A program made the position numbers and the translations under genes. Of a stretch of 64,000 nucleotides of DNA, positions 16,010 to 49,540 are shown in pieces (the stretch's first letter is position 1; every line of letters begins with the position of its first letter). Origin of the DNA: Nemertoderma westbladi (taxonomy: Eukaryota; Animalia; Xenacoelomorpha); the NCBI GenBank assembly GCA_032718475.1, contig JAUCBJ010001930.1, forward strand, positions 1 through 64,000, in the 5' to 3' direction. Under the pieces are notes generated by a model. The model had not been told where the DNA came from. It did not search any database and saw only the letters and a list, made by a program, of their open reading frames with translations.

Positions 16010-16077
16010 AATTGAATTATATTGTTAATATTTAGACTGTCACATTTATACGTCATTTAGTCCGAATTGTATTAAAT

Positions 16078-19000
16078 ATGTCTTCGAATACTTTGAGTGA
16101 CGCTGCTTGGGATTTACTGGATCGTATCATGGCAGATGAAAGTGATTCTCAGTCCGGTGAGGATGAACAAGATAAATGTGTCAATCCACCAACTTCTAAT
16201 AACGAAATCAGCAACACAAGCAGCGGTATAAACGTTATCAGTTTTAAATCAGAAGCGGGAGCTATTTGCGGTACTTCAGAAGATAAATCTCGAAAGATCA
16301 AACAAGAGTTCTGTACAGATGAACAATATTCTAATAATCAAATCAGCAACACAAACAGCGGTATAAACGTTATCAGTTTTAAATCAGAAGCGGGAGCTAT
16401 TTGCGGTACTTCCGAAGAGAAATCTCGAAAGATCAAACAAGAGTTCTGTACAGATGAACAATATTCTAATAATCAAATCGGCAACACCAACAGCGGTATA
16501 AACGTTATCAGATTTAAATCAGAAGCGGGAGCTATTTGCGGTACTTCTGAAGATACATCTCGAAAGATCAAACAAGAGTTCTGTACGGATGAACAATATT
16601 CTAATAATCAAATCGGCAACACCAACAGCGGTATAAACGTTATCAGTTTTAAATCAGAAGCGGATATTTGCGGTAAAGATAAATCTCGAGTTGTAAGACA
16701 AGATTTCTGCATTGGGAAACCATCTCCTTGTGAAGTTATTGCTAAGTCCGTTCTCAAGTGTAAGCAAATTAATCGTAAAGTAAATTTAAAGAATCGTAAA
16801 CAATCATTGCATAAAGGTATCAAGGATAAATGTGAATCTTGCGACAAACAATTTAGAAACAAACTGAGTCTAAAGAGACATGTGGAATCAATTCACAAAC
16901 GTATCAAGTATAAATGCGTTTATTGCGATAAATTGTTCACACAGGAAGGAAATCTAAAGAAACACCTCGAATCAGTACATAAAGGTATCAAGTATAATTG
17001 CGGTTCTTGTGACAAACAATTTAGTTACAAAGGAGGTCTAAAGACACACATAGAATCAGTTCATAAAGGCATCAAGTATATTTGCGATTCTTGTGACAAA
17101 CAATTTAGCGTCAAAGGATATCTGAATAAACACATGGAATCAGTACATAAAGGTATCAAGTATAAATGCGTTTATTGTGACAAACAATTTAGTTACAAAG
17201 GAGTCTAAAGAAACACATAGAATCAGTTCATAAAAGAATCAAGTATAATTGCGATTCTTGTGACAAAAATTTCAATAACAAGTGGAGGCGGAAGGCACAC
17301 ATAGAATCAGTTCATAAAGGCATCAAATATAATTGCGATTCTTGTGACAAACAATTTAGCGTCAAAGGATATCTGAAGAAACACATGGAATCAGTACATA
17401 AATATATCAAGTATAAATGCGTTTATTGTGACAAACAATTCATTAACAAATGGAATCTGAAGACACACATAGAATCAGTTCATAGAGGTATCCAGTATAA
17501 ATGCGGTTTCTGTGACAAACAATTTAGTCAAAAAGGAAATCTAAAGTTACACATAGAATCAGTACATAAAGGTATCAAGTATAATTGCGGTTCTTGTGAC
17601 AAACAATTTAGTCAAAAAGGAAATCTAAAGGGACACATGGAATCAGTACATAAAGGTATCAAGTATAATTGCGGTTCTTGTGACAAACAATTTAGTCAAA
17701 AAGGAAATCTAAAGGGACACATGGAATCAGTACATAAAGGTATCAAGTATAATTGCGGTTCTTGTGACAAACAATTTAGTCAAAAAGGACATCTAAGGAC
17801 CCACATGGAATCAGTACATAAAGGTATCAAGTATAATTGCGGTTCTTGTGAGAAAAAATTTAGTCAAAAAGGAAATCTAAAGGGACACATGGAATCAGTA
17901 CATAAAGGTATCAATCAAGTATAATTGCGGTTCTTGTGACAAACAATTTAGCGTCAAAGGATATCTGAAGAAGCACATGGAATCAGTACATATAATGGTA
18001 TCAAGTTAAAATGCGCTTGTTGTGACAAGAAATTTATTAAAAAATGGAATCTGAAGACACACATAGAATCAATGAATAAAGGCATCAAGTATAATTGCGG
18101 TTCCTGTGGAAAACAATTTAGTGACAAAGGATTTTTAAAGAAACACATGGAATCAGTACATAAAGGAATCAAATCAAGTATAATTGCGGTTCTTGTACCA
18201 AACAATTTAGCGTCAAAGGATATCTAAAGAAACACATGGAATCAGTACATAAAGGTATCAAATCAAGTATAATTGCGGTTCTTGTGTCAAATAATTTAGT
18301 GACAAAGGATATCTAAATAAACACATGGAATCAGTACATAAAAGGTATCAAGTATAATTGCGATTCTTGTGACAAACATTTCAGTGACAAAGGATTTCTA
18401 AAGAAACACATGGAATCAGTACATAAATGTATCAAGTATAATTGCAGTTCTTGTGACCAACAATTTAGTTACAATGGATATCTAAAGAAACACATGGAAT
18501 CCGTGCATAAAGGAATCACGTATAATTGCAGTTCCTGTGACAAACAATTTAGTCAAAAAGGAAATATAAAGGGACACATGGAATCAGTACATCAAAGGTA
18601 TCAAGTATAATTGCGGTTCTTGTGACAAACAATTTAGAGTCAAAGGATATCTGAAGAAGCACATGGAATCTGTACATGAAGGTATCAAGTATAAATGCGT
18701 TTATTGTTACAAACAATTCAATGATAAAGGATATCTGAAGAGACACATGGAATCAGTACATAAAGGTATAAAATCAATTATAATTGCGGTTCTTGTGACA
18801 AACAATTTAGTGACAAAGGATATCTAAAGAAACACATGGAATCAGTACATAAAGTTATCAAGTATATTTGCTGTTCTTGTGACAAATAATTTAGTGACAA
18901 AGGATATCTAAAGAAACACATGGAATCAGTACATAAAGGTATAAAATCAATTATAATTGCGGTTCTTGTGACAAACAATTTAGTGACAAAGGATATCTAA

Positions 19001-19230
19001 AGAAACACATGGAATCAGTACATAAAGGAATCAAGTATAATTGCAGTTCTTGTGACAAACAATTTAGTTACAAAGGATATCTAAAGAAACTCATGGAATC
19101 AGTACATAAAGGTATCAAGTATAATTGCGGTTCTTGTGACAAACAATTTAGTGACAAAGGGAAAATGAAAACACATATACACTCAGTTCACAAAGATACC
19201 AATTCAGGCTCCTGGTGGTGGAATCTGTAA
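16078..19230 (+). pseudogene. Tandem C2H2 zinc-finger protein gene, copy A (about 28 fingers), frameshifted after about 17200
   Basis: 84-bp/28-aa repeats HKGIKYxCxxCDKQFxxxxxLKxHMESV; N-terminal 135-bp (45-aa) repeats; multiple indels and stops. Confidence 0.9.
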
Positions 19231-22662: not shown

Positions 22663-25600
22663 ATGTACTATTCTCTCGTCGAGTTTGTGGATGAGGATAA
22701 TGCGTTAGCCGCTGTCCCACAAACATGGCTAACTAGAATACTCGAAACAAATGATGTGGATGAGCGACCTCTTGCGGAATGCTATTGGCCTCCAAAAAAT
22801 GTATCGAATGCCATCAAAAATTACACCCAACCAGAAAAGAATTGGGACCTATACCCAGTTGTTATCATACGGAGAGGCTGCACGTATGGAGATGTAATTA
22901 AATACCAAAAACGGGCTGAAAACAATAGGGCGCTTGAGTCCGAAGGAGGAGGTCAACAATCTACTACCGGCAATCATCGCAAAAGGAAACGTGATGCAAG
23001 GTTAGCTGTTAGGTTAGATGATTAGGCTAGCGGTAATGAACCATTCAGCCATTTGGTTGTCTGCCTATATCCTGATATCATATATAGGCCTACCATACCG
23101 GTAGGCCTATCTTTGTTCCTCCCACTTCAACCTAGTCTAAACCTCCCGGAGTCCTAACTACCGGTAGTACGGTTATATGTTCTGTTGTATATATATATAT
23201 ATCTACTTAGTTTATATATAAAACTTTATAAATAAATTGTATATATAACTACTTAATTTTCAATTTAATTTATAGTTATGGTACATTCTATATGAAAATA
23301 CAATGTGTATTCAACATTAAGAGTGCATGTAACAAAATGTTTGTCTTTACTTGTAGTAGGAGGCTACTGCACAGTGCACACCCATAACTTTTTAAATCGT
23401 CATTTTCATCAATTTTTATGCTATTTTTCTATTACCGTAACATCAACGTTAATATTAATTTTGATATAGACCCCCACCACGATTTGATGGCGATAGCGAA
23501 TCCGACGATACTAATGGTGAAATGGAACTTCCTGGAGCACCGGATCCTCCAACACCGCCACCAACAGGTATAAACACCACTCCAAGAACTCGGGGTGGAT
23601 CAGACGCTGAGATAATTGCCGTGACGCCCATTGAACAACAACAACATCTGGCCAATTATAATCCGAACTCACCCGTGCTAATTATGGAGTGTAAGTTCAT
23701 CCTTATACATCATTATTACAAGTTTACAATTACCACAAAATCTACCATGCCTTTTAGTTTCCTAGTTTAGTTTTATATCAAGGACTAACATTGATACAAT
23801 GTAAGAACTTTAACCATGATGCCTAGTTTATTTTGCGTTATTTAAATGTATGTATTGTATTCATTAAACTGTATGAGTTGAATATTATGCGTTTGTGTAA
23901 CGTTAATAAATCAACTGCAATAACTAGTTTTAATTTTTCTGAAATGTTACTGTTTCCTCAACGTTAAAATTCAACGACAATGAACATAATTGTATTTTTG
24001 TTAAATATTATACGTTGATACAATGTTACCAATTCAACCAACAATTCCACAGTGTGCAAGAGTTAAATAATATACGTTGAAACAATGTTACCAATTCAAC
24101 CAACAATTCCACAGTGTGCAAGAGTTAAATATTATACGTTGAAACAATGTTACCAATTCAACCAACAATTCCACAGTGTGCAAGAGTTAAATATTATACG
24201 TTGAAACAATGTTACCAATTCAACCAACAATTCCACAGTGTGCAAGAGTTAAATATTATACGTTGAAACAATGTTACCAATTCAACCAACAATTCCACAG
24301 TGTGCAAGAGTTAAATATTATACGTTGAAACAATGTTACCAATTCAACCAACAATTCCACAGTGTGCAAGAGTTAAATATTATACGTTGATACAATGTTA
24401 CCAATTCAACCAACAATTCCACAGTGTGCAAGAGTTAAATATTATACGTTGATACAATGTTACCAATTCAACCAACAATTCCACAGTGTGCAAGAGTTAA
24501 ATATTATACGTTGAAACAATGTTACCAATTCAACCAACAATTCCACAGTGTGCAAGAGTTAAATATTATACGTTGAAACAATGTTACCAATTCAACCAAC
24601 AATTACATAGTGTGCAAGAGTTAAATATTATACGTTGAAACAATGTTACCAATTCAACCAACAATTCCACAGTGTGCAAGAGTTAAATATTATACGTTGA
24701 AACAATGTTACCAATTCAACCAACAATTACATAGTGTGCAAGAGTTAAATATTATACGTTGAAACAATGTTACCAATTCAACCAACAATTCCACAGTGTG
24801 CAAGAGTTAAATATTATACGTTGAAACAATGTTACCAATTCAACCAACAATTCCACAGTGTGCAAGAGTTAAATATTATACGTTGAAACAATGTTACCAA
24901 TTCAACCAACAATTCCACAGTGTGCAAGAGTTAAATATTATACGTTGAAACAATGTTACCAATTCAACCAACAATTCCACAGTGTGCAAGAGTTAAATAT
25001 TATACGTTGAAACAATGTTACCAATTCAACCAACAATTCCACAGTGTGCAAGAGTTAAATATTATACGTTGAAACAATGTTACCAATTCAACCAACAATT
25101 ACATAGTGTGCAAGAGTTAAATATTATACGTTGAAACAATGTTACCAATTCAACCAACAATTCCACAGTGTGCAAGAGTTAAATATTATACGTTGAAACA
25201 ATGTTACCAATTCAACCAACAATTCCACAGTGTGCAAGAGTTAAATATTATACGTTGAAACAATGTTACCAATTCAACCAACAATTACATAGTGTGCAAG
25301 AGTTAAATATTATACGTTGAAACAATGTTACCAATTCAACCAACAATTCCACAGTGTGCAAGAGTTAAATATTATACGTTGAAACAATGTTACCAATTCA
25401 ACCAACAATTCCACAGTGTGCAAGAGTTAAATATTATACGTTGAAACAATGTTACCAATTCAACCAACAATTCCACAGTGTGCAAGAGTTAAATATTATA
25501 CGTTGAAACAATGTTACCAATTCAACCAACAATTCCACAGTGTGCAAGAGTTAAATATTATACGTTGAAACAATGTTACCAATTCAACCAACAATTACAT

Positions 25601-26943
25601 AGTGTGCAAGAGTTAAATATTATACGTTGATACAATGTTACCAATTCAACCAACAATTCCACAGTGTGCAAGAGTTAAATATTATACGTTGAAACAATGT
25701 TACCAATTCAACCAACAATTCCACAGTGTGCAAGAGTTAAATATTATACGTTGAAACAATGTTACCAATTCAACCAACAATTCCACAGTGTGCAAGAGTT
25801 AAATATTATACGTTGAAACAATGTTACCAATTCAACCAACAATTACATAGTGTGCAAGAGTTAAATATTATACGTTGAAACAATGTTACCAATTCAACCA
25901 ACAATTACATAGTGTGCAAGAGTTAAATATTATACGTTGAAACAATGTTACCAATTCAACCAACAATTACATAGTGTGCAAGAGTTAAATATTATACGTT
26001 GATACAATGTTACCAATTCAACCAACAATTCCACAGTGTGCAAGAGTTAAATATTATACGTTGAAACAATGTTACCAATTCAACCAACAATTCCACAGTG
26101 TGCAAGAGTTAAATATTATACGTTGATACAATGTTACCAATTCAACCAACAATTCCACAGTGTGCAAGAGTTAAATATTATACGTTGAAACAATGTTACC
26201 AATTCAACCAACAATTCCACAGTGTGCAAGAGTTAAATATTATACGTTGATACAATGTTACCAATTCAACCAACAATTCCACAGTGTGCAAGAGTTAAAT
26301 ATTATACGTTGAAACAATGTTACCAATTCAAGTTAGAATACTGTTACTTTATTTCATGGCGTATTTCAATCCGACTTAAAAATAAAAAAGAGGGGCTTAA
26401 AAAATTTTCATATATATTTATTAATATTTGTAATTGTTGAATTTTAGCTCTGGGTAAGAAGCTTCTTAGCAAATTAGAGTGTCTTCAGCAGGAGCTGAAA
26501 AGGCAAGGGGAGCGACAAGTCGAACTTGGTATTAAAATTGAGAGAATCATAGACGGCGACTCCTCTAAAGCAGAATCAGGCTATATCCCAAAGTTCCCCA
26601 TGAGCCGTATTGAAGAGGTCAATGAGAAATTGAAAAAATTGAAACGATTGAAAAAATTGAAATTGAATGAAAAATTGAAACTGAATTATAGTGGCAACCC
26701 TAAAACATGTTTAATTATATAAACTAAACTAAATAAATGAAAAACTAATATTTGATTAAACATGTAAGTAATTTATTAATATTGATTGACCATTACTTAT
26801 CATTTACAGAGTCTGTGAGACGGAATAAAGCATTGGTGTCAGTGTCTGATGCTGATGTGGGAAATGTTGTGAAGGACTGGTTAAAGTTTGCTGATGCAAG
26901 AATGTCTCGTAAGAAGAGGTCACTCGGCGTCACAGAAGAGTAA
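22663..26943 (+). pseudogene. Spliced transposon accessory gene (DUF4806-like). Predicted exons 22663-23000, 23470-23690, 26448-about 26640, 26810-26943
   Basis: N-terminal VEF...AVPQTWL...CYWPP motif; GT-AG junctions join in frame (KRDAR|PPPRFD; IME|SLGKKLL); FPMSRIEE and C-terminal VKDWLKFADAR motifs. The middle appears deleted. Confidence 0.65.
24001..26330. repeat. 62-bp tandem satellite, about 37-38 nearly identical copies
   Basis: Unit TTAAATATTATACGTTGAAACAATGTTACCAATTCAACCAACAATTCCACAGTGTGCAAGAG, with only a few recurring variants (GAA/GAT, TCCAC/TACAT). Confidence 0.98.
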
Positions 26944-27386: not shown

Positions 27387-27869
27387 GGGCATATATATCT
27401 TTCGCAGTTGTACTGCTTATCTTTTTTGATCTACCTCAATTTGATGTTTTAATCACCTTTTTGAAAGTGATACTTTTTTTAAGATTACATATTTTTATAG
27501 TGATATTTTAGTTAACTTCAAAAAAAAATATTTTATTATAATTCGGCAAGCCCGTACAATATAATTTTATGTCAAAGTTCACTAGTTTTTATAGAGAGTG
27601 AAGTTGATTCTCACGATGGGGATTCATTTGCAATTACGGCAGGATCTGAAATAGTTAATAATACTAGAACTTTCGACTTTTGTAACTTTGAAGTTGATTT
27701 AGGTAAATTCGATGATTCAGATTATGATTCCGATGCTATAATAGATGAATCTGAAGTTACCAATGATTCAGACGGCTTTAATGATGGTAATTCTCTGCGT
27801 GATTTTTTATCAGAGTGGGCGATTTCTTACTCTATTCCTCAAACTGCACTTAGAGCCCTATTAGATGGC

Positions 27870-29594
27870 TTGCGGTCTTCCCCTCAGGTTACTAATGAAA
27901 GTTTGCCAAAAGATCCCAGGACTCTTCTACGGACTCCTAGGAGTGAATCATTGTGTTTAAACTTGTGCTTAAATAAATCTGGGGGTTTGTACTACTATTT
28001 TGGAATTGAAAATAGCATAAATTATATTCTCAACAGTAGTAATGAATGGAAGAAATTTGTATCACTTTCAATAGATTCTGCAAATAATTTATCTATACAA
28101 ATAAATGTGGATGGTCTCTCGGTATACAAGAGTTGTAATTCACAGTTATGGCCACTTCTAAGTAGAATAGTCTTTCCTTGTAAAACTGAACCATTTATAA
28201 TAGCTTTGTATTACGGTAATTCAAAACCAACAGATCTAGAGTTTTTGCATGATTTTTGTACTGAGTATAAGAGACTTCAAACGTGTGGAATTTCAATTAA
28301 TGGATTACAGTGCAATTGTACTATTACAATAACTGCCGTAGTTTGCGATGCTCCTGCGCGATCCTTTCTTAAATGCGTTAAAGGTCCTGGCGGGTACTTT
28401 GGTTGTGATCGATGCACAGTAGAGGGCGTTTGGGAAGATAAGGTTGTTTATCCCGATTTGGATGCGAGTTCTAGAACTGCTGAGGATTTTGCTTCACAAA
28501 CAGATGAAGACCATCATCGTGGAACATCCCCTTTATCTGATCTAAAAATAGATATGGTTCACCAGTTTCCCTTAGATTACATGCACCTTATTTGCTTAGG
28601 GGTAATGCGACGTTTAATATTTCTTTGGGTTAAAGGTCCACCTCAGTGTCGTCTCGGTAGTGTACTTACTAATCAATTGTCAAATATTCTACTTTCTTAT
28701 AAGAGTTACATACCGTCTGAATTTGCTAGGAAACCGCGTTCTATTGCCGAGGTTAAACGTTGGAAAGCCACAGAGTTCCGATTATTTCTACTGTACACCG
28801 GTCCAGTTGCGTTGAAGCCTATCTTATCTAAGTCATTGTATGATAACTTTATGTTATTTTTTGTAGCAACCTATCTTTGTCTTAGTCCATTGTACTGCAG
28901 TCTCTATGTCGATTATTCAAATAAATTGTTTCGTTTATTTGTTGAACATTATTCAAAGTTATATGGTTCAAATATGGTAGTATATAATGTTCATTGTTTA
29001 ATACATCTGGCTGAAGATGTTAAACGATTTGGAAATTTAGATAGAGTTTCTGCCTTTCCTTTTGAGAACTTTTTGGGCAGTTTGAAAAAACGACTTCGTT
29101 CTCCAAACCTCCCATTGCAGCAGCTAGTGTTGCGAGAGCTCGAGATCAGAAAAAATACTGGAAAGATTAATAAGAAATCAAATGACTCAGAAATTATACA
29201 CAAAATCGAACACAATGATGGGCCTTTAACAAGCACTTTCACCCATGCTCTAAACATACGACAGTACAAAAGTGTACTTATTAATAATAATATTACTTTG
29301 TCGAGGGAAGGTTGTGCTAATAATTGTATTAGTGTTAATAATTCTCCAATGTTGGTTCGTAATATTTTGAAAGTTGGCTCAGACACTGTTGTGATTTATC
29401 AAAAGTTTGTTTCTGTTTCTGATTTTTTTGTTTACCCGTTACAATCTAGTAAAATTGGCATTTTTAAGGTTGGAAATGTGTCCAGTGATTTGCACCATAT
29501 GAAACTAAAAACCGAAGAAATTCATAAGAATGTAATTTTACCGATAGGTAGAACTGATAATTCATTTGTATTAATCCCAATACTTCATTCATAA
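27870..29594 (+). CDS. EnSpm-like DDE transposase (the reading frame extends upstream of 27870 without an ATG, so probably a spliced exon)
   Basis: Motifs LPKDPRTLL, NVDG, CDAPARSFLK, GYFGCDRC, FPLDYMHLICLGV, WKATEFRLFLLY, YNVHCLIHL, SAFPFEN. In-frame upstream LRDFLSEWA...PQTALRALL. Confidence 0.85.
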   Translation: MRSSPQVTNESLPKDPRTLLRTPRSESLCLNLCLNKSGGLYYYFGIENSINYILNSSNEWKKFVSLSIDSANNLSIQINVDGLSVYKSCNSQLWPLLSRIVFPCKTEPFIIALYYGNSKPTDLEFLHDFCTEYKRLQTCGISINGLQCNCTITITAVVCDAPARSFLKCVKGPGGYFGCDRCTVEGVWEDKVVYPDLDASSRTAEDFASQTDEDHHRGTSPLSDLKIDMVHQFPLDYMHLICLGVMRRLIFLWVKGPPQCRLGSVLTNQLSNILLSYKSYIPSEFARKPRSIAEVKRWKATEFRLFLLYTGPVALKPILSKSLYDNFMLFFVATYLCLSPLYCSLYVDYSNKLFRLFVEHYSKLYGSNMVVYNVHCLIHLAEDVKRFGNLDRVSAFPFENFLGSLKKRLRSPNLPLQQLVLRELEIRKNTGKINKKSNDSEIIHKIEHNDGPLTSTFTHALNIRQYKSVLINNNITLSREGCANNCISVNNSPMLVRNILKVGSDTVVIYQKFVSVSDFFVYPLQSSKIGIFKVGNVSSDLHHMKLKTEEIHKNVILPIGRTDNSFVLIPILHS

Positions 29595-31984: not shown

Positions 31985-33686
31985 GTATGTGTACGACACG
32001 AACTGCTCCTGGCAGAACCATTCGGGTTAGTGCGGTTTAACTGCAATACATGCGGGGAGTGTTTTTCACGCGACAAATGTATCCGCAATTGGGAGAGATT
32101 GTAACTGTAATGTTTGTAAGAAACGTTTGTCAACTTCCGGTGATACAGTTAGACACGATCTTTCCCAGATTGCATAATAAACTAGTAACCTAAGTAGAGT
32201 ATTGTAGTTAGTTGGATATTATGATAGTACTAGAGTATACATACACCATGACCTGGAATATAGCGTCGTAATTCAGTGACTTGGACCGGACCCCCCCCCC
32301 CCCCCCCCCCTCAACCCTTTTCTAAGAATGCCTTATTAAGAATGAATAACATTGTTTATAATCCTGCGATCGACAGCTGCAATACAGTATGCCGATAGTA
32401 CTGGTGAATTCAAATTGGGGTGGGGTCCAAGTTAATTCATTGAATTGCGACACTATATTTCACAGCACTCTGGAATATCAGAGTAGATTACGACCGATTA
32501 CAACCCCGGCCATTCTATATCTCTGGTTATAATTTTGGTTTAATTGATTATTTTAAGTAAATAATTGTATGGCGCTGGAATTTAAACATTTACAATTTTC
32601 GTAGATTTGCAATATTTTTAGGAGCTCGCTTAAAGTAAGATTAAAATTATTTTGCAATTGATTACTGGATGTTTTACTGACATATAAATTCGATATAATC
32701 AATATTTTTCAGTTCTGCTTGAACTATTTATTAGATATTCAAAAAATTTACTTAACTATATTTACTTCGGGATCCCGCTCCAAAAATGTCGGGATCAGGG
32801 CCGGGATTGCAATTTTCGCCGGAATCTCGGTTTTTCTGGATCGGGATCCCGTTATAATTTAAACGGGATGAGAATTTTCCGGGGTCGCTATCGAAATTGC
32901 AAGTTTGATTTTAATTTTTAATTTCACGAATTTTGGGATATTTTTATCACTTTATAACACACTGCCAAAATATTAGTAAGATAAAGTTATATTACAATTA
33001 ATTTAGTTAGTCATAGTTCACAGATGGGATTTTGCAGTTTTCAACGCACCGCTGTCAACACTGCAGTTATCCAGTGGTGCACGCGCACAATAACAAAATT
33101 GAATATTACCCCCAAAAGGATTCAATCGTTGTGTAAAGCTTGAAAATTCATGTTGAAAGTCGTTGTTATTACTTTGTTTCCTCGGCATAAATTCACGGAA
33201 AATACTTCCAATAGATGGATATTACGTTGTTAAAACGATGGCCGTTGGGCACCATCGTAACTACAATACATAGATAATTGGATCCATGATAGATAAATTG
33301 GCGCCAACTAATCTAGCGAGGTATTGTTAAACAACCTCTGTTACGATTTTCTACAGTGACGAGGCCGCAAACCTTTCATTGTAAAGTTCCAGTATTCCCC
33401 GAATCAAACTCGCAGAGTTACCCATCGATGTTGGTAGGGATAGAGGCCCAAATGTTCTTAGTAGCTACCGGTGCATCTGTTACATCTATTGTATTTGGAT
33501 CTAATTTAGGTACCCAATTATATTCCTACGTTCACTCCTAAGGCGCTCCACTCCCCTAAGCACTGTAGCTGCTGCATTCGGTATTACAGTCAGCCAAACC
33601 CAGAAAGTATTAAAGGCCCCAAAATGTTGAAGTTTGTGTCATTAAATTGAATTATTAATTGAAATAGAAGCTTGAAAATCCAATAA

Positions 33687-34377
33687 TAAAGAGTTAATTG
33701 TATTTATTTATGAATCAAGCACGTTAAGTGAAAACCTTACCGGTAGGTATCTGAGCGCCAAAGCATGTAAAAAACTAAAAAGCAACAAGACCTAGACGTT
33801 GCATGCAATCAGTGATCAGCTGACGGCAGCCTGCTGATCGGTAGATTTCGCCCCGCAACTGAAGGCATTCTCAGGTGGCCAAGCCAGGAAATATCGAGAG
33901 AGATTCCCAAAGGGGGACGGAACAGGTAACGAAATGAAGAAATGTCTGTACTGTAACTGTATTGTCCTATTGTAAGGGGGAATATGTTGGACACACCAAC
34001 CAACACTTGTTTGAACGCGTTAGACAGCACCAGGGTGGAACAGCCAATGATGGGAGCAAACATGGTAAGACTGTGCACAACCACATTGTGACACACCGCG
34101 GCGAGCCCAATACACATTGGCTGACTGACTGGCGTGAATTGTGTAAACATTTCACTGTAATTGCTAGACACCCGTTGCGGCCAGTCTTGCAAAAGTTTGA
34201 AATGTATTACATCCAAACACACAAGCCGGTTATCAACAAGCAGAAACGTGACTGACGCAAGTTTACAGTGCTGCTTCCCAGTGGTTAGTTACAGTACATG
34301 CATTTCTTCATTTCGTTACCTGTTCCGTCCCCTTTTTGGAATCTATCTTGATAATTCCTGGCTTGGCCTACTGAGAA
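33687..34377. mobile_element. Penelope-like remnant, copy B (inverted pair, interrupted by a LINE; resumes 39624-39642)
   Basis: Same GIY-YIG C-terminus (ORF 33962-34255) and inverted 3' end as 13385-16009. Confidence 0.8.
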
Positions 34378-35922: not shown

Positions 35923-38900
35923 ATGTACCAAGGCAGTCACCCTTCGTGCGATTTTTGCTTCTCCCAAATAAATATTACTGAGAAACAATTTAACTGTACC
36001 CTTTGTCGCAATATATACCACGTACCCTGCGGAACACACTTAAGCACCTCTGATATACTAAACGGAAATACAACAGACAATAATTACTGTATATTCTGCA
36101 ACCTATAAATTTTCCCTTTTGCTGTAGTTCCAGACAATGACACTGACATATTTAACCAGGACTCGAACACAGACGACAGTTCTCTACCAACAGACTATAC
36201 TGAGACAAACAACATATTTGAAGACATAGACCCGGACCAAAATATAAACTCAAATAACACAGACGGTACATACTTTACAGAACAGAAATTTAATGATGCT
36301 ACATTCAAAAAATCACTACTGGTATACCACATAAACTGTAGGAGCCTAAATAAAAACCTGACATCGACCATCGACTATCTCAACTTACTCGACAAACGGT
36401 TTGATGTAATTACCTTTACAGAGACTTTTTTGACAGACGAAACTGACCTAACTACTTTAAATATAGACGGATACTCGCAACCATTAGTAGACAACAGACA
36501 GTATGGAAAACGGAGCCGTGGTGGAACTGCCATTTACGTAAAAAACGGACTAGAATACACCTGCCATACGGACATAAACATTGAACGTTGCGAATCTTCC
36601 TGGGTCAGTGTTTCCCAATCTAAACAAAGTAACAGAAAACCCATTTTAATTGGTACCATATATCGACCCGAATCATACAAATTATCAGATTTTTTGGAAA
36701 ATTTAAACTGTACATTAGATGAAATTTCAAATAAAAATATAGATTCAATTATAACCGGTGATTTCAACATTGACCTTCTACGAAAACAAAACACTAACAG
36801 TAGTACATATCTTCAAACACTCGAATCCAATTCATTTGAACAACTGATTAAAGTAGCCACTAGAATTACGCTCCACTCAAAAACCTTGATTGATCATATC
36901 TTTACCAATATAAAGGATAAAACCTTAACTCCGGGTGTTTTTCAAGCAGAAGTAGGGACAACCGATCACTTAGGAACCTTCATATCAATACAAAACACAG
37001 CATGTTTTTTTAATCCACCGGAATCCCGCTTCAAATACGACATTTCAAAATTCGACAAAAAACTATTTTTAAGCGATCTAACTAAGACAAACAGCTGGAC
37101 ATATAAAAACGAAAAAAATGAAGACAAATTCAACCAATTTTATGAAGACTTTAAAAAAATTGCAAATTTTCATCTTCCAAAAAAGAAAATAAACAAGGAC
37201 GAAATACCTAGGAAACCTTGGATGACCGAAGGTCTAATTAAATCTATTAAAACTAAAAATAAAATGTACGTATCCGTTACAAAAAATATGACCGAAGAAA
37301 AACTAACTCAATATAAAAAATATAGAAATAAACTGACTAAAACACTCAGACAGGCTGAAAAATCATTTTACGAAAACGAATTTGAAAAAAACAAATCAAA
37401 CATAAGAAAGACATGGCAGACTATCAACACCGCATTAAAAAAATCAACTGCAAAAAAATCCCCTAAAAAAATTATTATTGACGAAAATGGAAAGAAAAGG
37501 GAAATTACTGACCCAGAGAAGATATGCAACGTATTCAACAATCACTTTGCTACTGTAGGATCCAGACTAGCAAAAGATCTACCAACAACAAATCGTAACC
37601 CAACTAGATATATTAACCATTGTAAACCCAACTCCTTTTCACTCGTAGAAACGACAAATACCGAAACTATTTACAATATACTTGATCTTGACAACTCTCG
37701 ATCCAACAACGACAGTTTCCCTATTAAATTAATTAAAACAGCAGCGTATGATCTCGCAGCGCACCTAACCTACCTAATTAATCTATCAGTTAAGCATGGC
37801 TTTTTTCCCTCTAATCTAAAATCAGCAAAAATCATACCTGTATTTAAATCTGGCGATCCCACTGATAAAAACAACTATAGGCCTATATCATTATTACCTG
37901 TATTTAGCAAGCTTTTTGAACGAGTAATCAACAATCAACTACTATCCTACTTAAACAAAAATTCAATACTATCAGACAGCCAGTACGGTTTTAGAACACA
38001 CTCCACTACGACAGACGCCATACTCACGGTAACTGAGAGACTACTACAGATACTAGACTCACAGGAATATGCTTGTCTAGTGCTTAAGAAAGCATTTGAT
38101 ACACTACAACACCAAATACTATTGGACAAACTAGACTGCTATGGCATACGAGGCATCCCACACAAACTGCTGACTAGCTACTTACACAAGAGAACACATA
38201 CCGTTGCTATAGGCAACTCTACTTCAGAATCAATACATGCTTCCTGCGGTACCCCACAGGGAGCAATACTGAGCGCAACACTGTTCCTACTGTACATAAA
38301 TGACCTACCAAATTGTACTTCACTACTAACAACACTATTTGCGGACGACACGAATCTACTTTATTATCACTCAAACCCTGACACATTACAAGACAATATC
38401 ACTACTGAACTTAGTAAACTTGATCAGTGGCTCACTGACAACCAACTATCACTAAACCTTAAAAAAACAGAACACTTAATTATCACAAATAAAAAACACG
38501 CCAACATTGCAAATATAAAAATACGACAAACTCCTATTAAAAAAGTAATTCACACAAAATTTCTTGGAATATGGACAGACAATGAACTAACATGGAAAAA
38601 TCACTGTGCCTACGTGCTTAAAAAAATTTCAAAATCTATAGGTATTTTCTTTAAACTTCGCTACATTCTACCACTACACATACTTAAACTACTCTACCAC
38701 TCCCTTATACAACCATACATTACATACGGGATAGTGATCTGGGGAAATGCTCAACCTGCACACATTAACCCAATTAAAATTAAAGTTAACAAACTTATCA
38801 GAGCAGTTACTTTCAGTCACTACCAAAAACACGCACCACCACTTTACAAACAACTTAACATACTTCCGATCGAACAACTACACCGACTCGAAACCGCAAA

Positions 38901-39168
38901 ATTAATGTGGGAAATCAACCACGGAAAGAAACAACCTTTTATTACCTCACTGTTTAAACAAATATCCACTATACATACATATAACACACGGTCAGCCTCA
39001 AGTAAAAACTGTTTTATTCCACGTATACGTTTACAACACGCACAAAAATCACTAAAATATCACGGTGCCATTGTCTGGAACTCGTTAGACAACAGTCTAA
39101 AACAATGCAAATCTAAAATATCACTCGCACACAAATTAAAAATTCAATTAATTTCTGAACTAAACTAA
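35923..39168 (+). pseudogene. LINE ORF2 (PHD-like finger, AP endonuclease, RT) with one in-frame stop and a deletion in the RT motif
   Basis: 35923-36108 and 36430-39168 share a frame across TAA at 36106-36108. HINCRSL, GDFN, LIDHIF, NYRPISLL, PQG, FADD are present. LVLKKAFDT lacks the usual FLD. Confidence 0.88.
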
Positions 39169-41721
39169 ATAAAACATCAATACTGAACATAAGGGTACTT
39201 AAGTAAGTAAACTAAATTAAATAACATAAATAAATAAATAAAATAAAATTTTACAGTAAAACAATAATCACTTGAATAACTAACTTCTTTATAAACACAA
39301 ACAAATACTATACACACATACTTTAATAACGTAGGGAAAGCAAAAACCGTATTATTTCTACCAAGGGTGACAGCCCAGCAACCCCCCCCCCCCCCCCCCC
39401 CTCCAAAAAGACCGCTGACGGAAGCCAACTACACTAGCTTAGGCTACAGTTGGCTTCTATCAGTGCATTGCATCATAACTCTAAAAGACGCCCCCTAACC
39501 CTAACCAAATTCATCAATACCTTTCTAAATATTACCAAAGTGGTGGCGGTTATATTACCGGTACAATAATGTGCGGTCTATTCGAGAAAGGAAATAATAA
39601 TAATAATCAGTTAATAATAATCAGAGAATGCCTTCAGTTGCGGTCAGCCAAACCCAGAAGGTATTTAAGGCCTCAACTGCTGAGGTTTGTGTCATTAAAT
39701 TGAATTATATTGGTAATATTTAGACTGTCACATCTATACTTCAGTTAGTCCGAATTGTATTAAATATGTCTTCGAATACTTTGAGCGACGCTGCTTGGGA
39801 TTTACTGGATCGTATCATGGCAGATGAAAGTGATTCTCAGTCCGGTGAGGAGGAACAAGATAAATGCGTCACTCCAGCAACTGTTAATAACGAAATCAGC
39901 AACACAAACAGCGGTATAAACGTTATCAGTTTTAAATCAGAAGCGGGAGCTATTTGCGGTACTTCTGAAGATAAATCTCGAAAGATCAAACAAGAGTTCT
40001 GTACAGATGAACAATATTCTAATAATCAAATCGACAACACAAGCAGCGGTATAAACGTTATCAGTTTTAAATCAGAAGCGGGAGCTATTTTCGGTACTTC
40101 TGAAGATAAATCTCGAGTTGTAAGACACGATTTCTGTATTGGGAAACCATCTCCTTGTGAAGTTATTGATAAGTCCGTTTTCAAATGTAAGCGAATTAAT
40201 CGCAAAGTAAATTTGAAGAATCGTAAACAATCATTGCATAAAGGTATCAAGTATAAATGTGAATCTTTCGACAAACAATTTAGAAACAAACTGAGTCTAA
40301 AGAGACACGTGAGATCAATTCACAAGCGTATCAAGTATAAATGCGTTTATTGCGATAAATTGTTCACACAGGAAGGAAATCTAAAGAAACACCTGGAATC
40401 AGTACATAAAGGTATCAAGTATAATTGCGGTTCTTGTGACAAACAATTTAGTGACAAACAGAGTCTGAAGAGACACATGGAATCAGTACATAAAGGTATC
40501 AAGTATAAATGCGTTTATTGAGATAAATTGTTCACACAGGAAGGAAATCTAAAGAAACACCTGGAATCAGTACATAAAGGTATCAAGTATAATTGCGGTT
40601 CTTGTGACAAACAATTTAGTGACAAACAGAGTCTGAAGAGACACATGGAATCAGTACATAAAGGTATCAAGTATAATTGCGGTTCTTGTGACAAACAATT
40701 TAGTGACAAACAGAGTCTGAAGAGACACATGGAATCAGTACATAAAGGCATCAAGTATAATTGCGGTTCTTGTGACAAACAATTCACTGACAAAGGATAT
40801 CTGAAGAAACACATGCAATCAGTACATAAAGGTATCAAGTATAATTGCGGTTCTTGTGACAAACAATTTAGTGACAAACAGAGTCTGAAGAGACACATGG
40901 AATCAGTACATAAAGGTATCAAGTATAATTGCAGTTCCTGTGACAAACAATTTAGTGACAAAGGACATCTGAAGAGACACATGGAATCAGTACATAAAGG
41001 TATCAAGTATAATTGCGCTTCTTGTGACAAACAATTTAGTGACAAACAGAGTCTGAAGAGACACATGGAATCAGTACATAAAGGCATCAAGTATTATTGC
41101 GGTTCTTGTGACAAACAATTTACTCAAAAAGGATATCTAAGGACCCACATGGAATGAGTACATAAAGGTATCATGTGTAAGTGCGGTTCTTGTGACAAAC
41201 AATTCAATGATAGAGGATATCTGAAGAAACACATGGAATCAGTACATAAAAGGCATCAAGTATATTGCGGTTCTTGTGACAAACAATTTAGTGACAAAGG
41301 ATATCTGAAGAAACCCATGGAATCAGTACATTAAGGTATCAAGTATAAGTGCGGTTCTTGTGACAAACAATTCAATGATAGAGGATATCTGAAGAAACAC
41401 ATGGAATCAGTACATAAAAGGCATCAAGTAATTGCGGTTCTTGTGACAAACAATTTAGTGACAAAGGATATCTGAAGAAACACATGGAATCAGTACATAT
41501 AGGTATCAAGTATAATTGTGGTTCTTGTGACAAACAATTTACTCAAAAAGGACATCTAAGGACCCACATGGAATCAGTACATAAAGGTATCAAGTATAAT
41601 TGCGGTTCTTGTGACAAACAATTTAGTGACAAAGGATATCTAAAGAAACACATGGAATCAGTACATAAAGGTATCAAGTATAATTGCGGTTCTTGTGACA
41701 AACAATTTAGTGACAAACAGA

Positions 41722-42211
41722 TTAATAAAAAGATAAGTTATTTTCGGTAAAATAAACTTATCATTCGAGGTTAAGACCCCTAGATCCCTTCCTATAATAA
41801 TTGTATAATAACAAACACCTCTAAAAATACAGCTTGCCAACACATTGTTACTATCAATAATCAAAAATCAGGGGCTAATAAAATGGCAGCTGGCTTTGAA
41901 ATTAATACTCCATATCTCAAGAACCTGTGGCCTAGTGGTTGAAGTCTCGGCTTCCACCTCGAGGTCTTCAGGTTCGAATCCGACATCACGCTGATGAGAC
42001 CCAGTAAGGTCGAAACGCGTACGTGGTTTGGAGAGATATGAGATATTAATTTCTAGAAAAAATACGCGATTCCTAAATTTGTACACTACCCGGTTAAAAA
42101 GTACGCATGTGATGGGATTAGTCCTACAATTGCGCCAATAAAAGATAAGTTATTTTCGGTAAAATAAACTTATCATTCGAGGTTAAGACCCCTAGATCCC
42201 TTCCTATAATA
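41722..42211 (+). mobile_element. Non-coding retrozyme/SINE-like element, family 1 (about 413-nt monomer plus about 76-nt terminal direct repeat), tRNA-like head followed by a hammerhead
   Basis: Direct repeat 41724-41800 / 42137-42212; about 13-bp TSD AGTGACAAAC(A)GA; A box TGGCCTAGTGG (41928-41938); B box GGTTCGAATCC (41971-41981); hammerhead core immediately downstream. Confidence 0.85.
41986..42026 (+). ncRNA. Type I hammerhead ribozyme (minimal, palindromic stem III)
   Basis: Stem I TCACG/CGTGG; CTGATGA 41991-41997; stem II GACC-cagtaa-GGTC; GAAA 42012-42015; ACGCGT palindrome; GUA cleavage triplet, predicted cut after 42021. Confidence 0.9.
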
Positions 42212-44622
42212 AGTGACAAACGAGTCTGAAGAGACACATGGAATCAGTACATAAGGTATCAAGTATAATTGCGGTTCTTGTGACAAACAATTTAGTGACA
42301 AACAGAGTCTGAAGAAACACATGGAATCAATACATAAAGGTATCAAGTATAATTGCGGTTCTTGTGACAAACAATTTAGTGACAAAGGGAATCTAAAGAA
42401 ACACAAACACTCAGTTCACAAAGATACCAATTAAGGCTCCTGGTGGTGGAATCTTTAAAATACCGACATCAATCCCGTTTTATCAACAAAAATATCAATC
42501 CCGTTTTATCAACAAAAATAAACTGCGGTACCTCGTCTGTCGGTCTGTTCATCCCTTTACTTACAAACTATATATGCGTGCACTTTGTTATCTTAAACTG
42601 ACAGTGTATTATATGATTATTTTCACCATGTGTCGTGCAATAGTTATAAGTCAATTTTCTTGGAATAACAATTTTCATTTTCAAATTAATAATGTGTAAT
42701 TGTGTAATTTACCTATTTTAAATAAAAAGTTATTAAATTAATTAAAATTAAAATGGCAGTAATTTTTGTGGATTCGATGGCACTGAATACAAAAAATGTT
42801 TCCGTGAAATTCGGATTAAGATTGAGGGAGTAGTAATGTTTATAGTGAAATTTTTATTCCGCCGTCTGCCACTAAGGGAAGGCGATTAATTTTATAATCT
42901 TTGTATTGAGACTATTTGGCCTTCCATATGCAGTAGTGAATGACTATGATAAAATCGTTATATTAACTTCTAACCCAAATTGACAGCTATAAAAACAGTT
43001 CACGGGGGTAATACAAAACAATGATAATTGGAAATGCGCCCCCTGGGAAACGAAAAAAATAAGTAGTGCAAATTTATGTGCAAACTTTTAACATTTATGT
43101 CTAAGGCCGGTTACATACACATACAGTAGTGTCGTTATTCAGGTAGGTAGGCCATACTCCCCCCCCCCCCCCCCCCCAAATTATTCTTCTAATGTTAATG
43201 AGATTGCATAAAGTTTGAAACAGTAATAGTTTCTTACAGTTTCAAATACTGAGGCCTAAGCATTTAGCATGACAATAATCTCCTATCTCATCTGGACCAA
43301 TCAGTAAACAGTATTCGCCTACGCATATGCATACGGTGCGCGTATGTCAAATCGGCCAATGTTACGGTAACTGGATTGTGTGGCTGCGCGCCGTACTGTA
43401 AACATGCACTTGCGCATTATTCGAGCTTGCGTATTCATTAAAAGCTGTGTTATCGGATGCCTCCCGTTATGCGCTCCTATCACAGAGTGGGAGGGGAGCC
43501 AATTTACCAATATTAGCCAGAACAAACACCGGCTAGTAAGGGAACTCATTAGTTCTCTTGCAGAAAGCCGATTCATCTCATTCGTTTTTCCGTTTACCAA
43601 TTCACAGTTGAGTCAGTTGATTGCTAGCTACTGTAAGCCGAACCCTGCAAAGGGCTGCAGTTGGCACTTTACATCCATACAGTGTGCATCGTTTTGTACC
43701 TCATAGTCTAACGGTTGTCACTGAAGGTTACTGGTCAGCGCAATATAACCATCTAACAATATGGATCATATCAGTAGAACTAAACTTTATAGACTCTTAT
43801 TCACCGGGCCTACGTCCAGACAGTCACCATAGATACTACTACAATCGGCATGCTGCATTGCAGCTGCATTATATTTATATATATATATATACATTACATT
43901 ATTACTTTGGTCTTTATATATATATTACATATATATTAAGAATGCTGTGCCGGATTGTCCACGAAATTGCGCCGCCACAACTCCCTATCACCCATGACAT
44001 ATATAATATAATTAAATATAATAATATAGACTACTAAGTAAAACCTCACCATGCAAATATCAGCCCCCCCCCCCCCCCCCCCCCCCCCACCTACCTATTA
44101 ATGGAACATCTACTCTACCCTTCTGTAAATCAACTCCGCCTGGTAATCCACACATACAAAGCATCGCTTGTGCGCAGCGCAAGCCTTGGAGGATCCCAAG
44201 ATCAAATATTTTGGTGAAAATATGTAATATAATTTATGTTGCTTTCATTATTATAAATATACGATAGAAAAGATTCAAAGATAGAAATTAATGACTGTTA
44301 TGACACGAGTTGTTGACTTATAATGATATTATTATATATCTATTTTAATTATATATTTATTCTGAGTTGTAAGAGTCGATGACGATTCGTTTACATCTGC
44401 ATTTAAATTGAGCCAAGGAAGTTGATTGTTTAAATTCCTGAGGTAGGTCATTCCAAAGCGCTGGGGCTTGATATATGGCGGTATTTTGAGCATACAAAGT
44501 TCTGAGCAACGGCAAACGATAATTTGAGGCAGAACGTGTGGGATAAGAGTAAATTTGTCTATTAATAATACATTTTGAGCTTAATTCAATTGACAGTTTT
44601 ATTAAAAATTTTCAGGGTTTAA

Positions 44623-46181: not shown

Positions 46182-47626
46182 TTAAAACTTAGAGTAACAC
46201 ACTGTAAACGATACATGTCTTCCAGCTTTCGAATGCATAGATGTTTAAATAATGCCTCGGTGTGAGCCTTATGTTTTTTGAATAAGATTATTCGAATAAT
46301 TTTCTTCTGTATTTTTATGAGAGGATCGATGGAATAGCCTGGTGAGCCCCACAGTATTAAACCAAACAACAGATATGGGCTAACTAGAGTATGGTACAAT
46401 GTAAGCCGAATTTGTTCTGAAATAGAGTGTTTAATTTTGTTGATAACCCCAATGTTTTTAGAAATTTTAGAACGTATGTATTTTATGTGAGTTTGCCATT
46501 TAAGATTATCTGTAATCATAATAGCTAAAAATTTTGTGGATTTCACTTGGGAAACCTCATACCTAGCATTTGAATCGGTGGGACAGTTTGATCTTTAGGT
46601 CGCTTCAATTTAAATATCATAAAATTAGTTTTGATGCGAATGAGTTTTGATTTAATGTGAGTTTGTTTATTGATAGACAGTTACAAACATGTATTAACTC
46701 GACGTTTAGGGTATTAATCATTTGAGCAATATTTTTTCCGGACATAAAAATATTCGTATCGTCTGCAAATCGTATAAATTTTAATAGTTTAGAATATTCC
46801 ACAATGTCATTAATATATATGAGAAACAAAACTGGGCCCTAAATGGATCCCTGGGGTACACCTTTGGTGATGCATTCGCACCATATTGAACGTATTGGTA
46901 TCTGTTGCAGAAATAATTTTTAAACCATTCCAGAGGTGTACCCCGAATTCCATAATGTTCAAATTTTTGACATAGAATGTTATGGTCGACGGTATCGAAA
47001 GCTTTAGATAGGTCTAAAAAAATTACTGTTGTCATTTGGGAATTTTCTACAGCGTCTGATAATTCGCTGAAAAGTAAAGATAGTGCTATATCTGGCGAAC
47101 GCCCACTTTGAAACCCAAATTTACGAGATGTTATTATTTTGTATTTTTCTAAATAGGATATTAATTAGTTATAAACACACTTTTCAATAAGTTTTGAACA
47201 TAAAGGTATAGGACACTAACAGGTCTATAATTCATAACGAATTTTTTATATTTTGCTTTGTAAATAGGAGTAATTTTTGCTATTTTCATAGCTCTAGGAA
47301 CAATTCCAGTTTCCAAAGATGAGTTAATTATGTGTAGCAAAGGGTCAGTAATATGATTAAATACATAATTTTATTATAGATGGATTTATTAGATCAGTTC
47401 CAATTGCTTGTTTATTAGCTAAGGAGGAAACTATATTTTTGAGTTCATCTTTTGAAATTTTTGAGAGAAACATTGATGTGCATTGCCCACCTTGTAGGTA
47501 TTTGTAAATCGATTCATTGGTTGAAGGTATTTTTGCGGCTAGTTGTTGCCCAAATAACGAGTAGTGCTCATTGAATCCGTTTGCAATCTCAGTGCCATCT
47601 TCCACAAGTTTATTTTTTATAAGGAA

Positions 47627-48041
47627 ATAAATTGGAGATGAGCTGTTGCAACTGTAATTAAAGGTGTAATATTATGGGTTTGTTTAGAAGTGGAAAAATT
47701 AATTACAGTTGCAACAGCTCATCTCCAATTTATTTAATTAATATCACCTGGCAGCAATACCGAGCTGAATATTTATTTATTTATTTGTACTTCCCTCCTG
47801 TTTCACTCTAGCATATTTGAGGCCGTTAGGTCCGCTGTTAGAGATAGAATATATGCAACTTAAGACTGCCCGTTCAATAGAAGTGGATTAGGTGGGACTG
47901 TGAGTGTCGGGGGCTAGTGGCTGAGCTGGTTAGCGCTACTGATGAGGCCTGTTAGGCCGAAACGTGCGTATAGCGCTGGTTCAACCCCCGGTAACGCGCT
48001 CCCATTTTTCTCCACTTCTGAACAAACCCATAATATTACAC
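47627..48041 (+). mobile_element. Non-coding retrozyme-like element, family 2 (about 345-nt monomer plus about 75-nt inverted terminal segment)
   Basis: 12-bp TSD TTTTATAAGGAA (47615, 48042); removing the insert restores the LINE frame SQYTSSFLIKNKLVEDG; contains A box, hammerhead, B box and T5 in that order. Confidence 0.85.
47931..47978 (+). ncRNA. Type I hammerhead ribozyme
   Basis: Stem I TAGCGCTA/TAGCGCTG; CTGATGA 47939-47945; stem II GGCCT-gtt-AGGCC; GAAA 47959-47962; short stem III ACG-tg-CGT; GUA triplet, predicted cut after 47970. Confidence 0.92.
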
Positions 48042-49540
48042 TTTTATAAGGAACGATGAAGTGTATTGTGATTTTCTTTTATGGGAGGGAATTAGCGACT
48101 TTATTACACCCCAAGTTTTACTAATATTACCCTTTAATTTTTCGAACAGTTCACTAGTATAATTTTTTTTGCGAATTACTGTGGTTGATTATTTTTACAT
48201 TTTATAAAAGTATCTTTAGTGTTCTGTGTTTTATATTTGAGAAAAGTGGAGTAAAGCTTGTGTTTTCTACGGATTGAACTAAAAACAGTTTCACTTATCC
48301 ATGGTTTAACAGGATTTATAATACGGATTTTCTGAAGAGGAAAGTGTTGATTATAAAGTTCCTGATATAAATCGATATGAAGTTATCGTAAGCAGTATCT
48401 GGATTTTAAGACCCCAGAACGTGCTTCCACCCCACCTTAGTAATACTCTGAATAGCTTTTTTGAAGTGGGTAGTGTTCGATTTGGAATGGTCACGTCGAT
48501 AGTAAAACTTCGGGGCGCACCGCCCCACTTAAGTAAAGAATATAGCAATATAATAAAGGTAGCGCGAATATAATTTGGAATGTCACAAAACGTTATGATA
48601 GGTAGATGATCTGAAATATTGGCTAACAAGATTACAGTATAATGGTAGTGTAGTTATTAGTTAAAATATTATTAATTGAGGTTGCAGTGTGCTCCGTAAT
48701 TCGTGTTGGTTTGTTAACTTGTAGAACGAAAAATGTTTGATTTAATAACTCAATGAAATTTTGCGGCACTGAGCAATCATTAGCGTGTATAATATTAATG
48801 TTAAAATTTCCACTTAAATAGCATATCTTCCCTTCATTATTTATATTTTTTCAAGGTCTATTTTTAGCAGCTCCAGAAATGCCTGGATATATGTATTGGG
48901 GGGACTATATATGTTTCCAAAAATTACATTTTTATTGTTTCCTCTACTCCATTCAACAAAAATTGTCTCATATAAACCGCACTTAAAAGATCCTAAGTCG
49001 TGTCTATCACACTCAAGGTCGTCACGGACGTATATTCCAGCACCCCCACCTACAGTATCTTTTCGAAATTTGTAGAAAAAATTATAGTTTTTCAAAGGAA
49101 ACAAGTCGTGATTTTGTTCGATTTGCCATGTTTCACTCAGTCCTATAACCGCTGGTTGATTATTTACACACAGCAATAATTGTTCAAGTTCTTCTAAATT
49201 TTTATTTAAACTTCTGATATTAGCCTGCATTATAGCAAATGATTGCTCCGCCTTACAATACAACCAACTTCGGATGGATTTTTGTAATATTTACATTTTG
49301 GATTGAAGTTATTGAACAAATTTGCATCAGGATCAGATCCAGGTTCATTAAATATTGAATCATCATCGTCCAAAAAATTTATAAATTTATTATCCAAGAG
49401 ATCAAGATTCACCACAGATGGTAAACGGAAATCAGATATAGTTAAAATATATTCTTCATGATTTTCGATTTTTTGGAATGGCAGGGAATTCTCTATACAA
49501 CTAAGACATAACCAATGGTCTAAGTTAATAAAATAATTAT

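Follow-up and report, generated by a model that had tools for sequence, protein, structure and literature searches.

A hammerhead ribozyme motif between A-box and B-box sequences in a short mobile repeat of Nemertoderma westbladi

In ribozyme gene therapy, engineered tRNA cassettes carry a hammerhead between the A box and the B box, followed by a T run; the tRNA fold is kept and other RNAs are cut in trans. In the Schistosoma SINE-like repeats Sm-alpha and Sj-alpha, tRNA-derived A and B boxes and a type I hammerhead occur within one repeat, as described in the available parts of PMC6765202, PMC2576457 and PMC2770079, and in Sm-alpha the promoter precedes the ribozyme (PMC6765202, PMC2576457). 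Metazoan non-LTR retrozymes are non-coding units of 170-400 nt with a type I hammerhead (PMC7229834, in its available sections; bioRxiv 10.64898/2026.07.22.740005), and in the available portion of PMC7761336 they do not seem to carry promoters. A 2026 preprint links metazoan retrozymes to Penelope-like elements through co-occurrence and pLTR similarity (10.64898/2026.07.22.740005). Two questions about the animal retrozyme cycle concern the polymerase behind the RNA and the enzyme behind its insertion, and the family described here gives a handle on both.

In this study, we analysed the 64-kb stretch of DNA whose first lines are given above, hereafter the window. On balance, we consider that the locus at 47699-48041 is probably a young member of an abundant family of 343-bp non-coding repeats, namely a non-LTR retrozyme likely mobilised by Penelope enzymes, in which a hammerhead sits between likely tRNA-derived boxes that are predicted to double as its outer helix and probably form a live Pol III promoter.

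The initial annotation had taken a unit of about 100 nt to be the element. This was not sustained, since the borders, the target duplication and the empty site enclose 427 bp, and the mobile unit is the 343-bp monomer. The parts of the insertion are as follows.

47615-47626, + strand: left target-site duplication, 12 bp, an exact direct repeat of 48042-48053
47627-47698, - strand: 72-bp second copy, inverted and 5'-truncated, arranged head-to-head with the main one
47699-48041, + strand: full retrozyme monomer, 343 bp, 43% G+C
47699-47735, + strand: start of the unit, which recurs as the tail of the inverted copy (blastn 36/36)
48042-48053, + strand: right target-site duplication, 12 bp

In minus-strand orientation, this inverted second copy consists of the T run and the last 40 bp of the unit, followed by a tail of 34-36 bp that is the start of the unit. 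No open reading frame of at least 120 aa overlapped the 343-bp monomer. The depth of the family was high from about 47612 to 48043 and was at flank level outside. Furthermore, contigs joining 47614 to 48042, with 12 ambiguous letters, were found in all three DNA runs examined (X1, X3 and X5). These contigs represent the empty site, and the insertion is therefore recent and polymorphic. MicroRNA-like Rfam matches at 47620-47740 were set aside as merely the inverted repeat.

The stretch was covered by 2035 contigs in run X1 and by 1064 in run X3, and the summed depth inside the element was 155-1463 times that of the flank, which is not a copy number; the family can fairly be put at hundreds of copies or more. 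Runs X7 and X8 held no contig of the family, which is no proof of absence. Insertions of Penelope-like elements are marked by an inverted 5'-truncated copy, a tail of 30-40 bp and a short target duplication, as described in the available parts of PMC8557442 and PMC3846280. The present insertion likewise has an inverted 5'-truncated copy, a tail of 34-36 bp and a 12-bp duplication with its empty site. Taken together, the Penelope-type marks, the empty site and the abundance of the family suggest a non-LTR retrozyme that was likely moved by Penelope enzymes.

Penelope-like GIY-YIG endonuclease remnants, arranged head-to-head in several inverted copies, were present at 13385-16018 and 33677-34377 of the window. 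One of them matched Pfam PF01541 with 22.8 bits at 15380-15700, and head-to-head remnants lay at 15.0-15.7 kb. Penelope-like elements thus exist in this genome. A comparison within the 64-kb window gave no sequence common to the end of the element and these remnants.

The inserted copy is unbroken through the predicted cut site of the ribozyme, and the inverted piece spans the junction between the end and the start of the unit. These features point to a circle, a multimer or a terminally redundant RNA as the putative template and, as judged from the inserted letters, exclude a cleaved linear monomer. The end-to-start junction, as it would occur in tandem copies (the dimers to multimers of metazoan retrozymes), was seen in the inverted piece and in contigs; a tail alone would account for it. 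Run X4, which is only guessed to be RNA, gave a self-closing contig of 371 nt (47967-48043 followed by 47699-47996, depth 5.5). We did not take it as evidence of expression or of a circle, because a 36-bp terminal redundancy in DNA would close the same loop.

Subsequently, the ribozyme and the sequences around it were located within the monomer.

47904-47913, + strand: 5' arm of an outer helix closing a hairpin of about 100 nt; its family partner is 47987-47997, and the register is shifted in this copy
47918-47929, + strand: A box; its part 47919-47927 has a second predicted role, pairing with the B box to give distal helix I
47928-47931, + strand: helix I bulge, serving as hammerhead loop 1 and coinciding with the GG of the tRNA D-loop motif; left unpaired when folded with family-majority letters
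47932-47938, + strand: 5' strand of helix I, within a palindrome that recurs at 47971-47977; no variant reaches 1%
47939-47945, + strand: catalytic core CTGATGA; no variant at 1% or more
47946-47958, + strand: helix II and loop 2; pairing probability 1.00, variants at 47952 and 47958
47959-47970, + strand: core GAAA (47959-47962), a 2-bp helix III with a 4-nt loop, and the GTA triplet
47971-47977, + strand: 3' strand of helix I
47978-47988, + strand: B box, of which 47978-47986 is also the 3' strand of distal helix I
48005-48009, + strand: T run (T5), Pol III terminator-like, 16 nt 3' of the B box

All motifs named by the initial annotation (A box, core, helix II, GAAA, GTA, B box and T5) stand at the positions it gave. 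Together, 47932-47977 forms a canonical type I hammerhead between the A box and the B box. The core is complete (CUGANGA, GAAA, NUH), helix II has 4-5 bp, and helix I is open, with the loop 1 bulge at 6-7 bp; this bulge lies at the spot of the 5' loop in the Rfam HH9 model. The cut site is predicted between 47970 and 47971, and the B box begins 8 nt past it. A search with the Rfam hammerhead models, which had been proposed beforehand, matched Hammerhead_1 (RF00163) at 47933-47976 with 23.4 bits and an E value of 8e-4, below the gathering score of 34. At the gathering threshold, Rfam gave no match in the whole 64-kb window. The palindrome of helix I is present twice (47931-47938 and 47971-47977) and forms a 7-bp direct repeat that flanks the hammerhead core. 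Such a repeat may have been left behind when the core inserted into a sequence derived from a tRNA.

When both strands of the window were scanned for the core with helices I and II, two hammerheads were found, the focal one and one at 41991. The latter belongs to a second, unrelated element (41728-42215, within 41719-42221), which has the Sm-alpha order, a 412-bp unit and 76-bp terminal repeats. Its A box lies near 41928, its B box at 41971-41981 and its hammerhead at 41991-42021; Rfam gave 24.4 bits with HH9 and 15 bits with the tRNA model (E 1.3). This element sits in a C2H2 zinc-finger array with a candidate 10-bp target duplication, and no T run follows its B box.

The strength of the two boxes was examined with matrices built from phage and prokaryotic tRNAs, not those of the host. 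The A-box matrix was derived from 134 tRNAs chosen by a T-arm pattern and the B-box matrix from about 20 tRNAs chosen by a D-arm pattern, so that neither was trained on the box used for choosing its tRNAs; the parse demanded T8, A14 and A58. With these matrices, the focal A box was within the top three and the focal B box was the second best of 128,000 window positions. The best two A and B pairs in the window were those of the two hammerhead elements (33.0 and 27.7 bits, the next pair having 20.3), and the focal pair was second among the 128,000 positions. When compared with real tRNAs, again phage and prokaryotic, the focal A box outscored 67% of 159, and the focal B box was outscored by 91-95%. 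The observation of the initial annotation that the hammerhead sits between Pol III boxes was therefore confirmed: the boxes are statistically strong, the T run is kept across the family, and the whole lies in a mobile repeat.

The predicted fold was that of a ribozyme. With the family-majority letters, the pairing probability was 0.85-0.86 for helix I, 1.00 for helix II and 0.00 for the D arm and the T arm; over all foldings, the D-arm and T-arm values were 0.00-0.07. ARAGORN reported no tRNA at the element, and Rfam RF00005 gave no match at E values up to 10, either for the full feature or for each half alone. The initial annotation had described a tRNA-like unit whose anticodon arm is replaced by the hammerhead. 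Of this description, the strong A and B boxes around the hammerhead held, and the tRNA fold did not. In the predicted fold, the tRNA-like pieces supply the ribozyme with helix I, loop 1 and its distal helix.

Between the A box (47919-47927) and the B box (47978-47986), 8 of 9 places pair. In the same register, real tRNAs had a median of 5-6 of 9 pairs and the second element of the window had 5; eight pairs were attained by 1 of 41 unselected and by 0 of 19 D-arm-selected real tRNAs. An earlier comparison of tRNA pairing (1/153) was set aside, as it was biased by the T-arm search pattern, and the unselected sets were used instead. Since such pairing is rare among real tRNAs, the boxes appear to have been remodelled into the distal helix I of the ribozyme. 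The sole mismatch of this helix is C47921 against A47984, both of which are box-consensus letters. A58 is a consensus letter of the B box. The C of the A box belongs to the TRGCY motif, as given in the available part of PMC10886601.

With the letters of the window itself, the pairing probability of helix I fell to 0.08, and the active fold cost 3.9 kcal/mol versus 1.8 kcal/mol for the majority letters. A pairing of 47905-47913 with 47985-47993, which had been put forward as an extension of stem I, does exist in this copy; it depends on two private letters and belongs to the misfolded copy. In runs X1 and X3, 99.7-99.8% of the family depth had A at 47909 and G at 47993. Helix III had a probability of 0.00-0.02 in the monomer, and a dimer formed a duplex of 8 bp with -8.8 to -9.8 kcal/mol. 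A weak helix III that forms in the dimer has been described for metazoan hammerheads (PMC4209133, in its available part). The focal copy, which stands alone as a monomer and carries two private changes that should misfold helix I according to these predictions, is therefore likely a dead end.

The variation of the family was read from depth-weighted letter tables of two DNA runs (X1 and X3), which do not represent individual copies; run X5 was used at a threshold of 3% only. Between 47860 and 48030, another letter reached at least 1% in X1 or X3 at 16 places. The places 47909 and 47993 were set aside as private, as the window letter is rare there (<0.3%). Of the 28 places immediately upstream of the A box, 8 were variable; the A box itself had 1 such place among 12, the stretch separating the boxes 4 among 48, the B box none among 11 and the downstream flank 1 among 11. 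The comparison of boxes with flanks that had been suggested at the outset was borne out in part: the boxes (1/23) were less variable than the upstream flank (8/28; Fisher p 0.03), whereas the comparison with both flanks gave p 0.08. A test of box places beyond the ribozyme helices (0/8, p 0.32) was discarded, since most of these places pair. Conservation cannot separate promoter function from ribozyme function here, because nearly every box letter also pairs in the ribozyme.

The sole A-box variant, 47925 G/A (25-44%), keeps the purine and changes G-U to A-U. At 47958, C/T variation (19-34% of the depth) changes the first pair of helix II from G-C to G-U, and the variant at 47952 falls in loop 2. 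The letter at 47966 is A in 84-97%, which makes loop 3 a palindrome for most of the family. None of the unpaired box letters (T47918, C47921 and A47984) had a variant at 1% or more, in numbers too small to test. For the majority of the family, the T run is lengthened to T6-T7, the C at 48010 being T or absent, and it is T6 in a diverged subfamily. There were at least two subfamilies: the variant letters at 47915, 47925 and 47952 climb together, from 9-29% in X1 to 79-90% in X5. The diverged form has a different sequence after 48000 (48000-48030) and retains the T6 run. At 47930-47975, runs X3 and X5 also held contigs with a step back of 46 nt or with a 4-letter insertion at 47937, which made up 1108 of 4703 depth in X5, in one contig. 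They are possibly from a related family with another helix I.

From these observations, we propose the following course for the family. TFIIIC would bind the A and B boxes, and Pol III would start near 47905. Many transcripts would end at the T5-T7 run and give an RNA of about 100 nt folding as a hammerhead, which would be cut after 47970 into pieces of about 65 and 38 nt. The cutting would probably take place in a dimer, since helix III is weak and palindromic. Some transcripts would pass the T run and, in tandem copies, reach the next hammerhead. The resulting cut-to-cut monomer would start 5' with the B box and finish 3' with the A box, and a host RtcB-type ligase would close it, rejoining the promoter. 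A Penelope protein with reverse transcriptase and GIY-YIG activities may then insert a copy of the circle or multimer elsewhere, which would produce the inverted copy, the tail and the 12-bp duplication. RtcB circularises other retrozymes efficiently, according to the available text of PMC7229834. Read-through of the T run is plausible, because a single-molecule assay put termination by human Pol III at T4-T9 at only 52-65% (PMC13385618, as available in part).

Several findings stand against this proposal. The terminator lies 34 nt past the cut site and opposes a 343-nt monomer made by Pol III. The B box is weak, below that of 91-95% of real tRNAs, the Rfam score is below gathering, and helix II has a G-U pair in 19-34%. 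A bolder form of the proposal, which we regard as rather unlikely, is a self-cutting Pol III gene with two products. The terminated RNA of about 100 nt would serve as a dimer partner in trans for lone copies or circles; its halves would stay paired, with ends of the tRNA-splicing type, and would be passed to RtcB. Read-through RNA alone would yield the mobile circle, in which ligation rejoins the B box to the A box, each insertion thereby regaining the whole promoter. If this were true, the same bases would be a promoter in DNA and a ribozyme helix in RNA.

The same retrozyme may instead carry its boxes as a relic, a possibility to which we give limited weight. A tRNA gene or SINE head would have been captured, pieces of its D and T loops would be kept only as the distal helix, and transcription would come from Pol II or from read-through of a neighbour. 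The deviations from typical tRNA boxes are indeed those completing the helix, the B box is weak for a tRNA, the T run would stop a Pol III-made monomer, and read-through transcription has been proposed for metazoan retrozymes (PMC7761336, in its available portion). However, the three unpaired box letters named above are free of variants at 1%, with the limit on numbers given there, and the T run lies at terminator distance and is retained in the diverged subfamily. A T5 in a given 30-nt slot arises by chance in about 5%, and 48005-48009 is the sole run of at least four T within the monomer. If the boxes are relics, the family would be an ordinary retrozyme of unusual origin. Very unlikely, in our estimate, is an origin of the boxes by chance, as side effects of a GGTT bulge in the helix I of a hammerhead. 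In tRNAs the two boxes are naturally part-complementary (median 5-6 of 9), loop 1 provides the GG, Rfam and ARAGORN detect no tRNA, and the exact 16-letter D-arm motif fell within a tRNA in 0 of 4 distinct viral contexts (family variant, 1 of 25). Yet the joint score was reached in only 3 of 300,000 trials with random type I scaffolds having complementary arms and in 11 of 600,000 with scaffolds having the observed 9-nt distal arm and the GGTT bulge, and none of those reaching it also carried T5. Moreover, the sole other hammerhead of the window likewise has both boxes, and, among 100 viral loci with a degenerate D-arm motif, 23 had it at position 8 or 9 of a tRNA.

The framing of the initial annotation, in which the ~100-nt unit is a stand-alone tRNA-like SINE or small-RNA gene, is now hardly credible. 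The A box, the B box and the T run are spaced as in a tRNA gene, and the summed depth is greatest over the core, though inflated there by short branching contigs. Against it, the borders, target duplication and empty site enclose the 427 bp, depth is at family level over the whole monomer, and no cloverleaf forms; for this copy the reading is largely refuted. It seems similarly improbable that a DNA-level repeat (a MITE, a Helitron-type element or a satellite) carries the ribozyme as a passenger. Inverted repeats are present, but the ends are not inverted copies of one another, and what is inverted is a truncated copy, placed head-to-head and bearing a tail, as in Penelope-like elements (PMC8557442 and PMC3846280, in their available parts). 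The core and helices also have no variant at 1% or more except for one G-U and loop changes. We therefore retain the reading of a Penelope-mobilised retrozyme with a live Pol III promoter as the probable one.

Most of the window is made up of transposable elements and arrays of zinc fingers, a content that points to an animal genome. At 16036-19160 and 39724-42405 it contains two C2H2 zinc-finger genes, which are paralogous and have long arrays of 84-bp repeats. A LINE open reading frame of 1019 aa at 36109-39168 is unbroken and encodes endonuclease and reverse transcriptase, and a 692-aa open frame at 27516-29594 resembles a DNA transposase, with no Pfam match. A 62-bp satellite at 24000-26331 has 37.6 copies that are 98% alike, with a loose A-box-like match per unit on the minus strand.

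In the literature we found no natural hammerhead between an A box and a B box, in agreement with the initial annotation, which knew of no mobile element with this layout; supplements or Repbase and Dfam may contain it. Pattern scans for a hammerhead with a B box gave 0 and 7 loci in metagenomes, all 7 of them G+C-rich and unrelated, and 0 in viral contigs. Scans for an A box with the start of a hammerhead gave at least 121 prokaryotic and 63 viral loci, and helices I and II were present in 0 of 184 among the matches listed. The family offers two practical handles: a short, mutable putative internal promoter, and a polymorphic insertion whose empty site is known and which bears a Penelope footprint. 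The sequences of a tRNA-type promoter and of a ribozyme are here encoded in one set of bases. Given the partial complementarity that A and B boxes have from the start, this layout suggests that a tRNA gene could readily turn into a mobile RNA that cleaves itself.

Compared with described systems, the focal element resembles Penelope-like elements in its inverted 5'-truncated copy, its tail (30-40 bp in those elements) and its hammerhead, and its 12-bp target duplication is near their 8-10 bp (PMC8557442, PMC3846280 and PMC4209133, as far as available). Unlike them, it has no open reading frame, its hammerhead is canonical rather than minimal, and it carries tRNA-type boxes. The Cassandra and Helenus TRIMs likewise bury a Pol III promoter within the repeat of a non-autonomous retroelement; in contrast to the focal element, they are LTR elements with primer-binding sites and, in the available part of PMC10886601, without a ribozyme. 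The order of parts is the same as in the engineered tRNA-hammerhead cassettes, whereas the focal element is natural, mobile and predicted to cut itself. With metazoan non-LTR retrozymes it shares, besides the size and hammerhead type given at the outset, a weak palindromic helix III, a G+C content below 45%, many dispersed monomers and a proposed Penelope partner (PMC7229834, in its available sections; bioRxiv 10.64898/2026.07.22.740005). It differs from them in having internal Pol III boxes and a T run, and in its case a single insertion displays both the Penelope footprint and an empty site. Like Sm-alpha and Sj-alpha, it combines tRNA-derived boxes with a type I hammerhead; in place of the Sm-alpha order, its ribozyme lies between the boxes, the boxes pair as the distal helix, and a T5-T7 run follows. 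Accordingly, the class of the element was already known, as was the combination of Pol III boxes with hammerheads, and what appears to be new is the interleaved layout of A box, ribozyme and B box.
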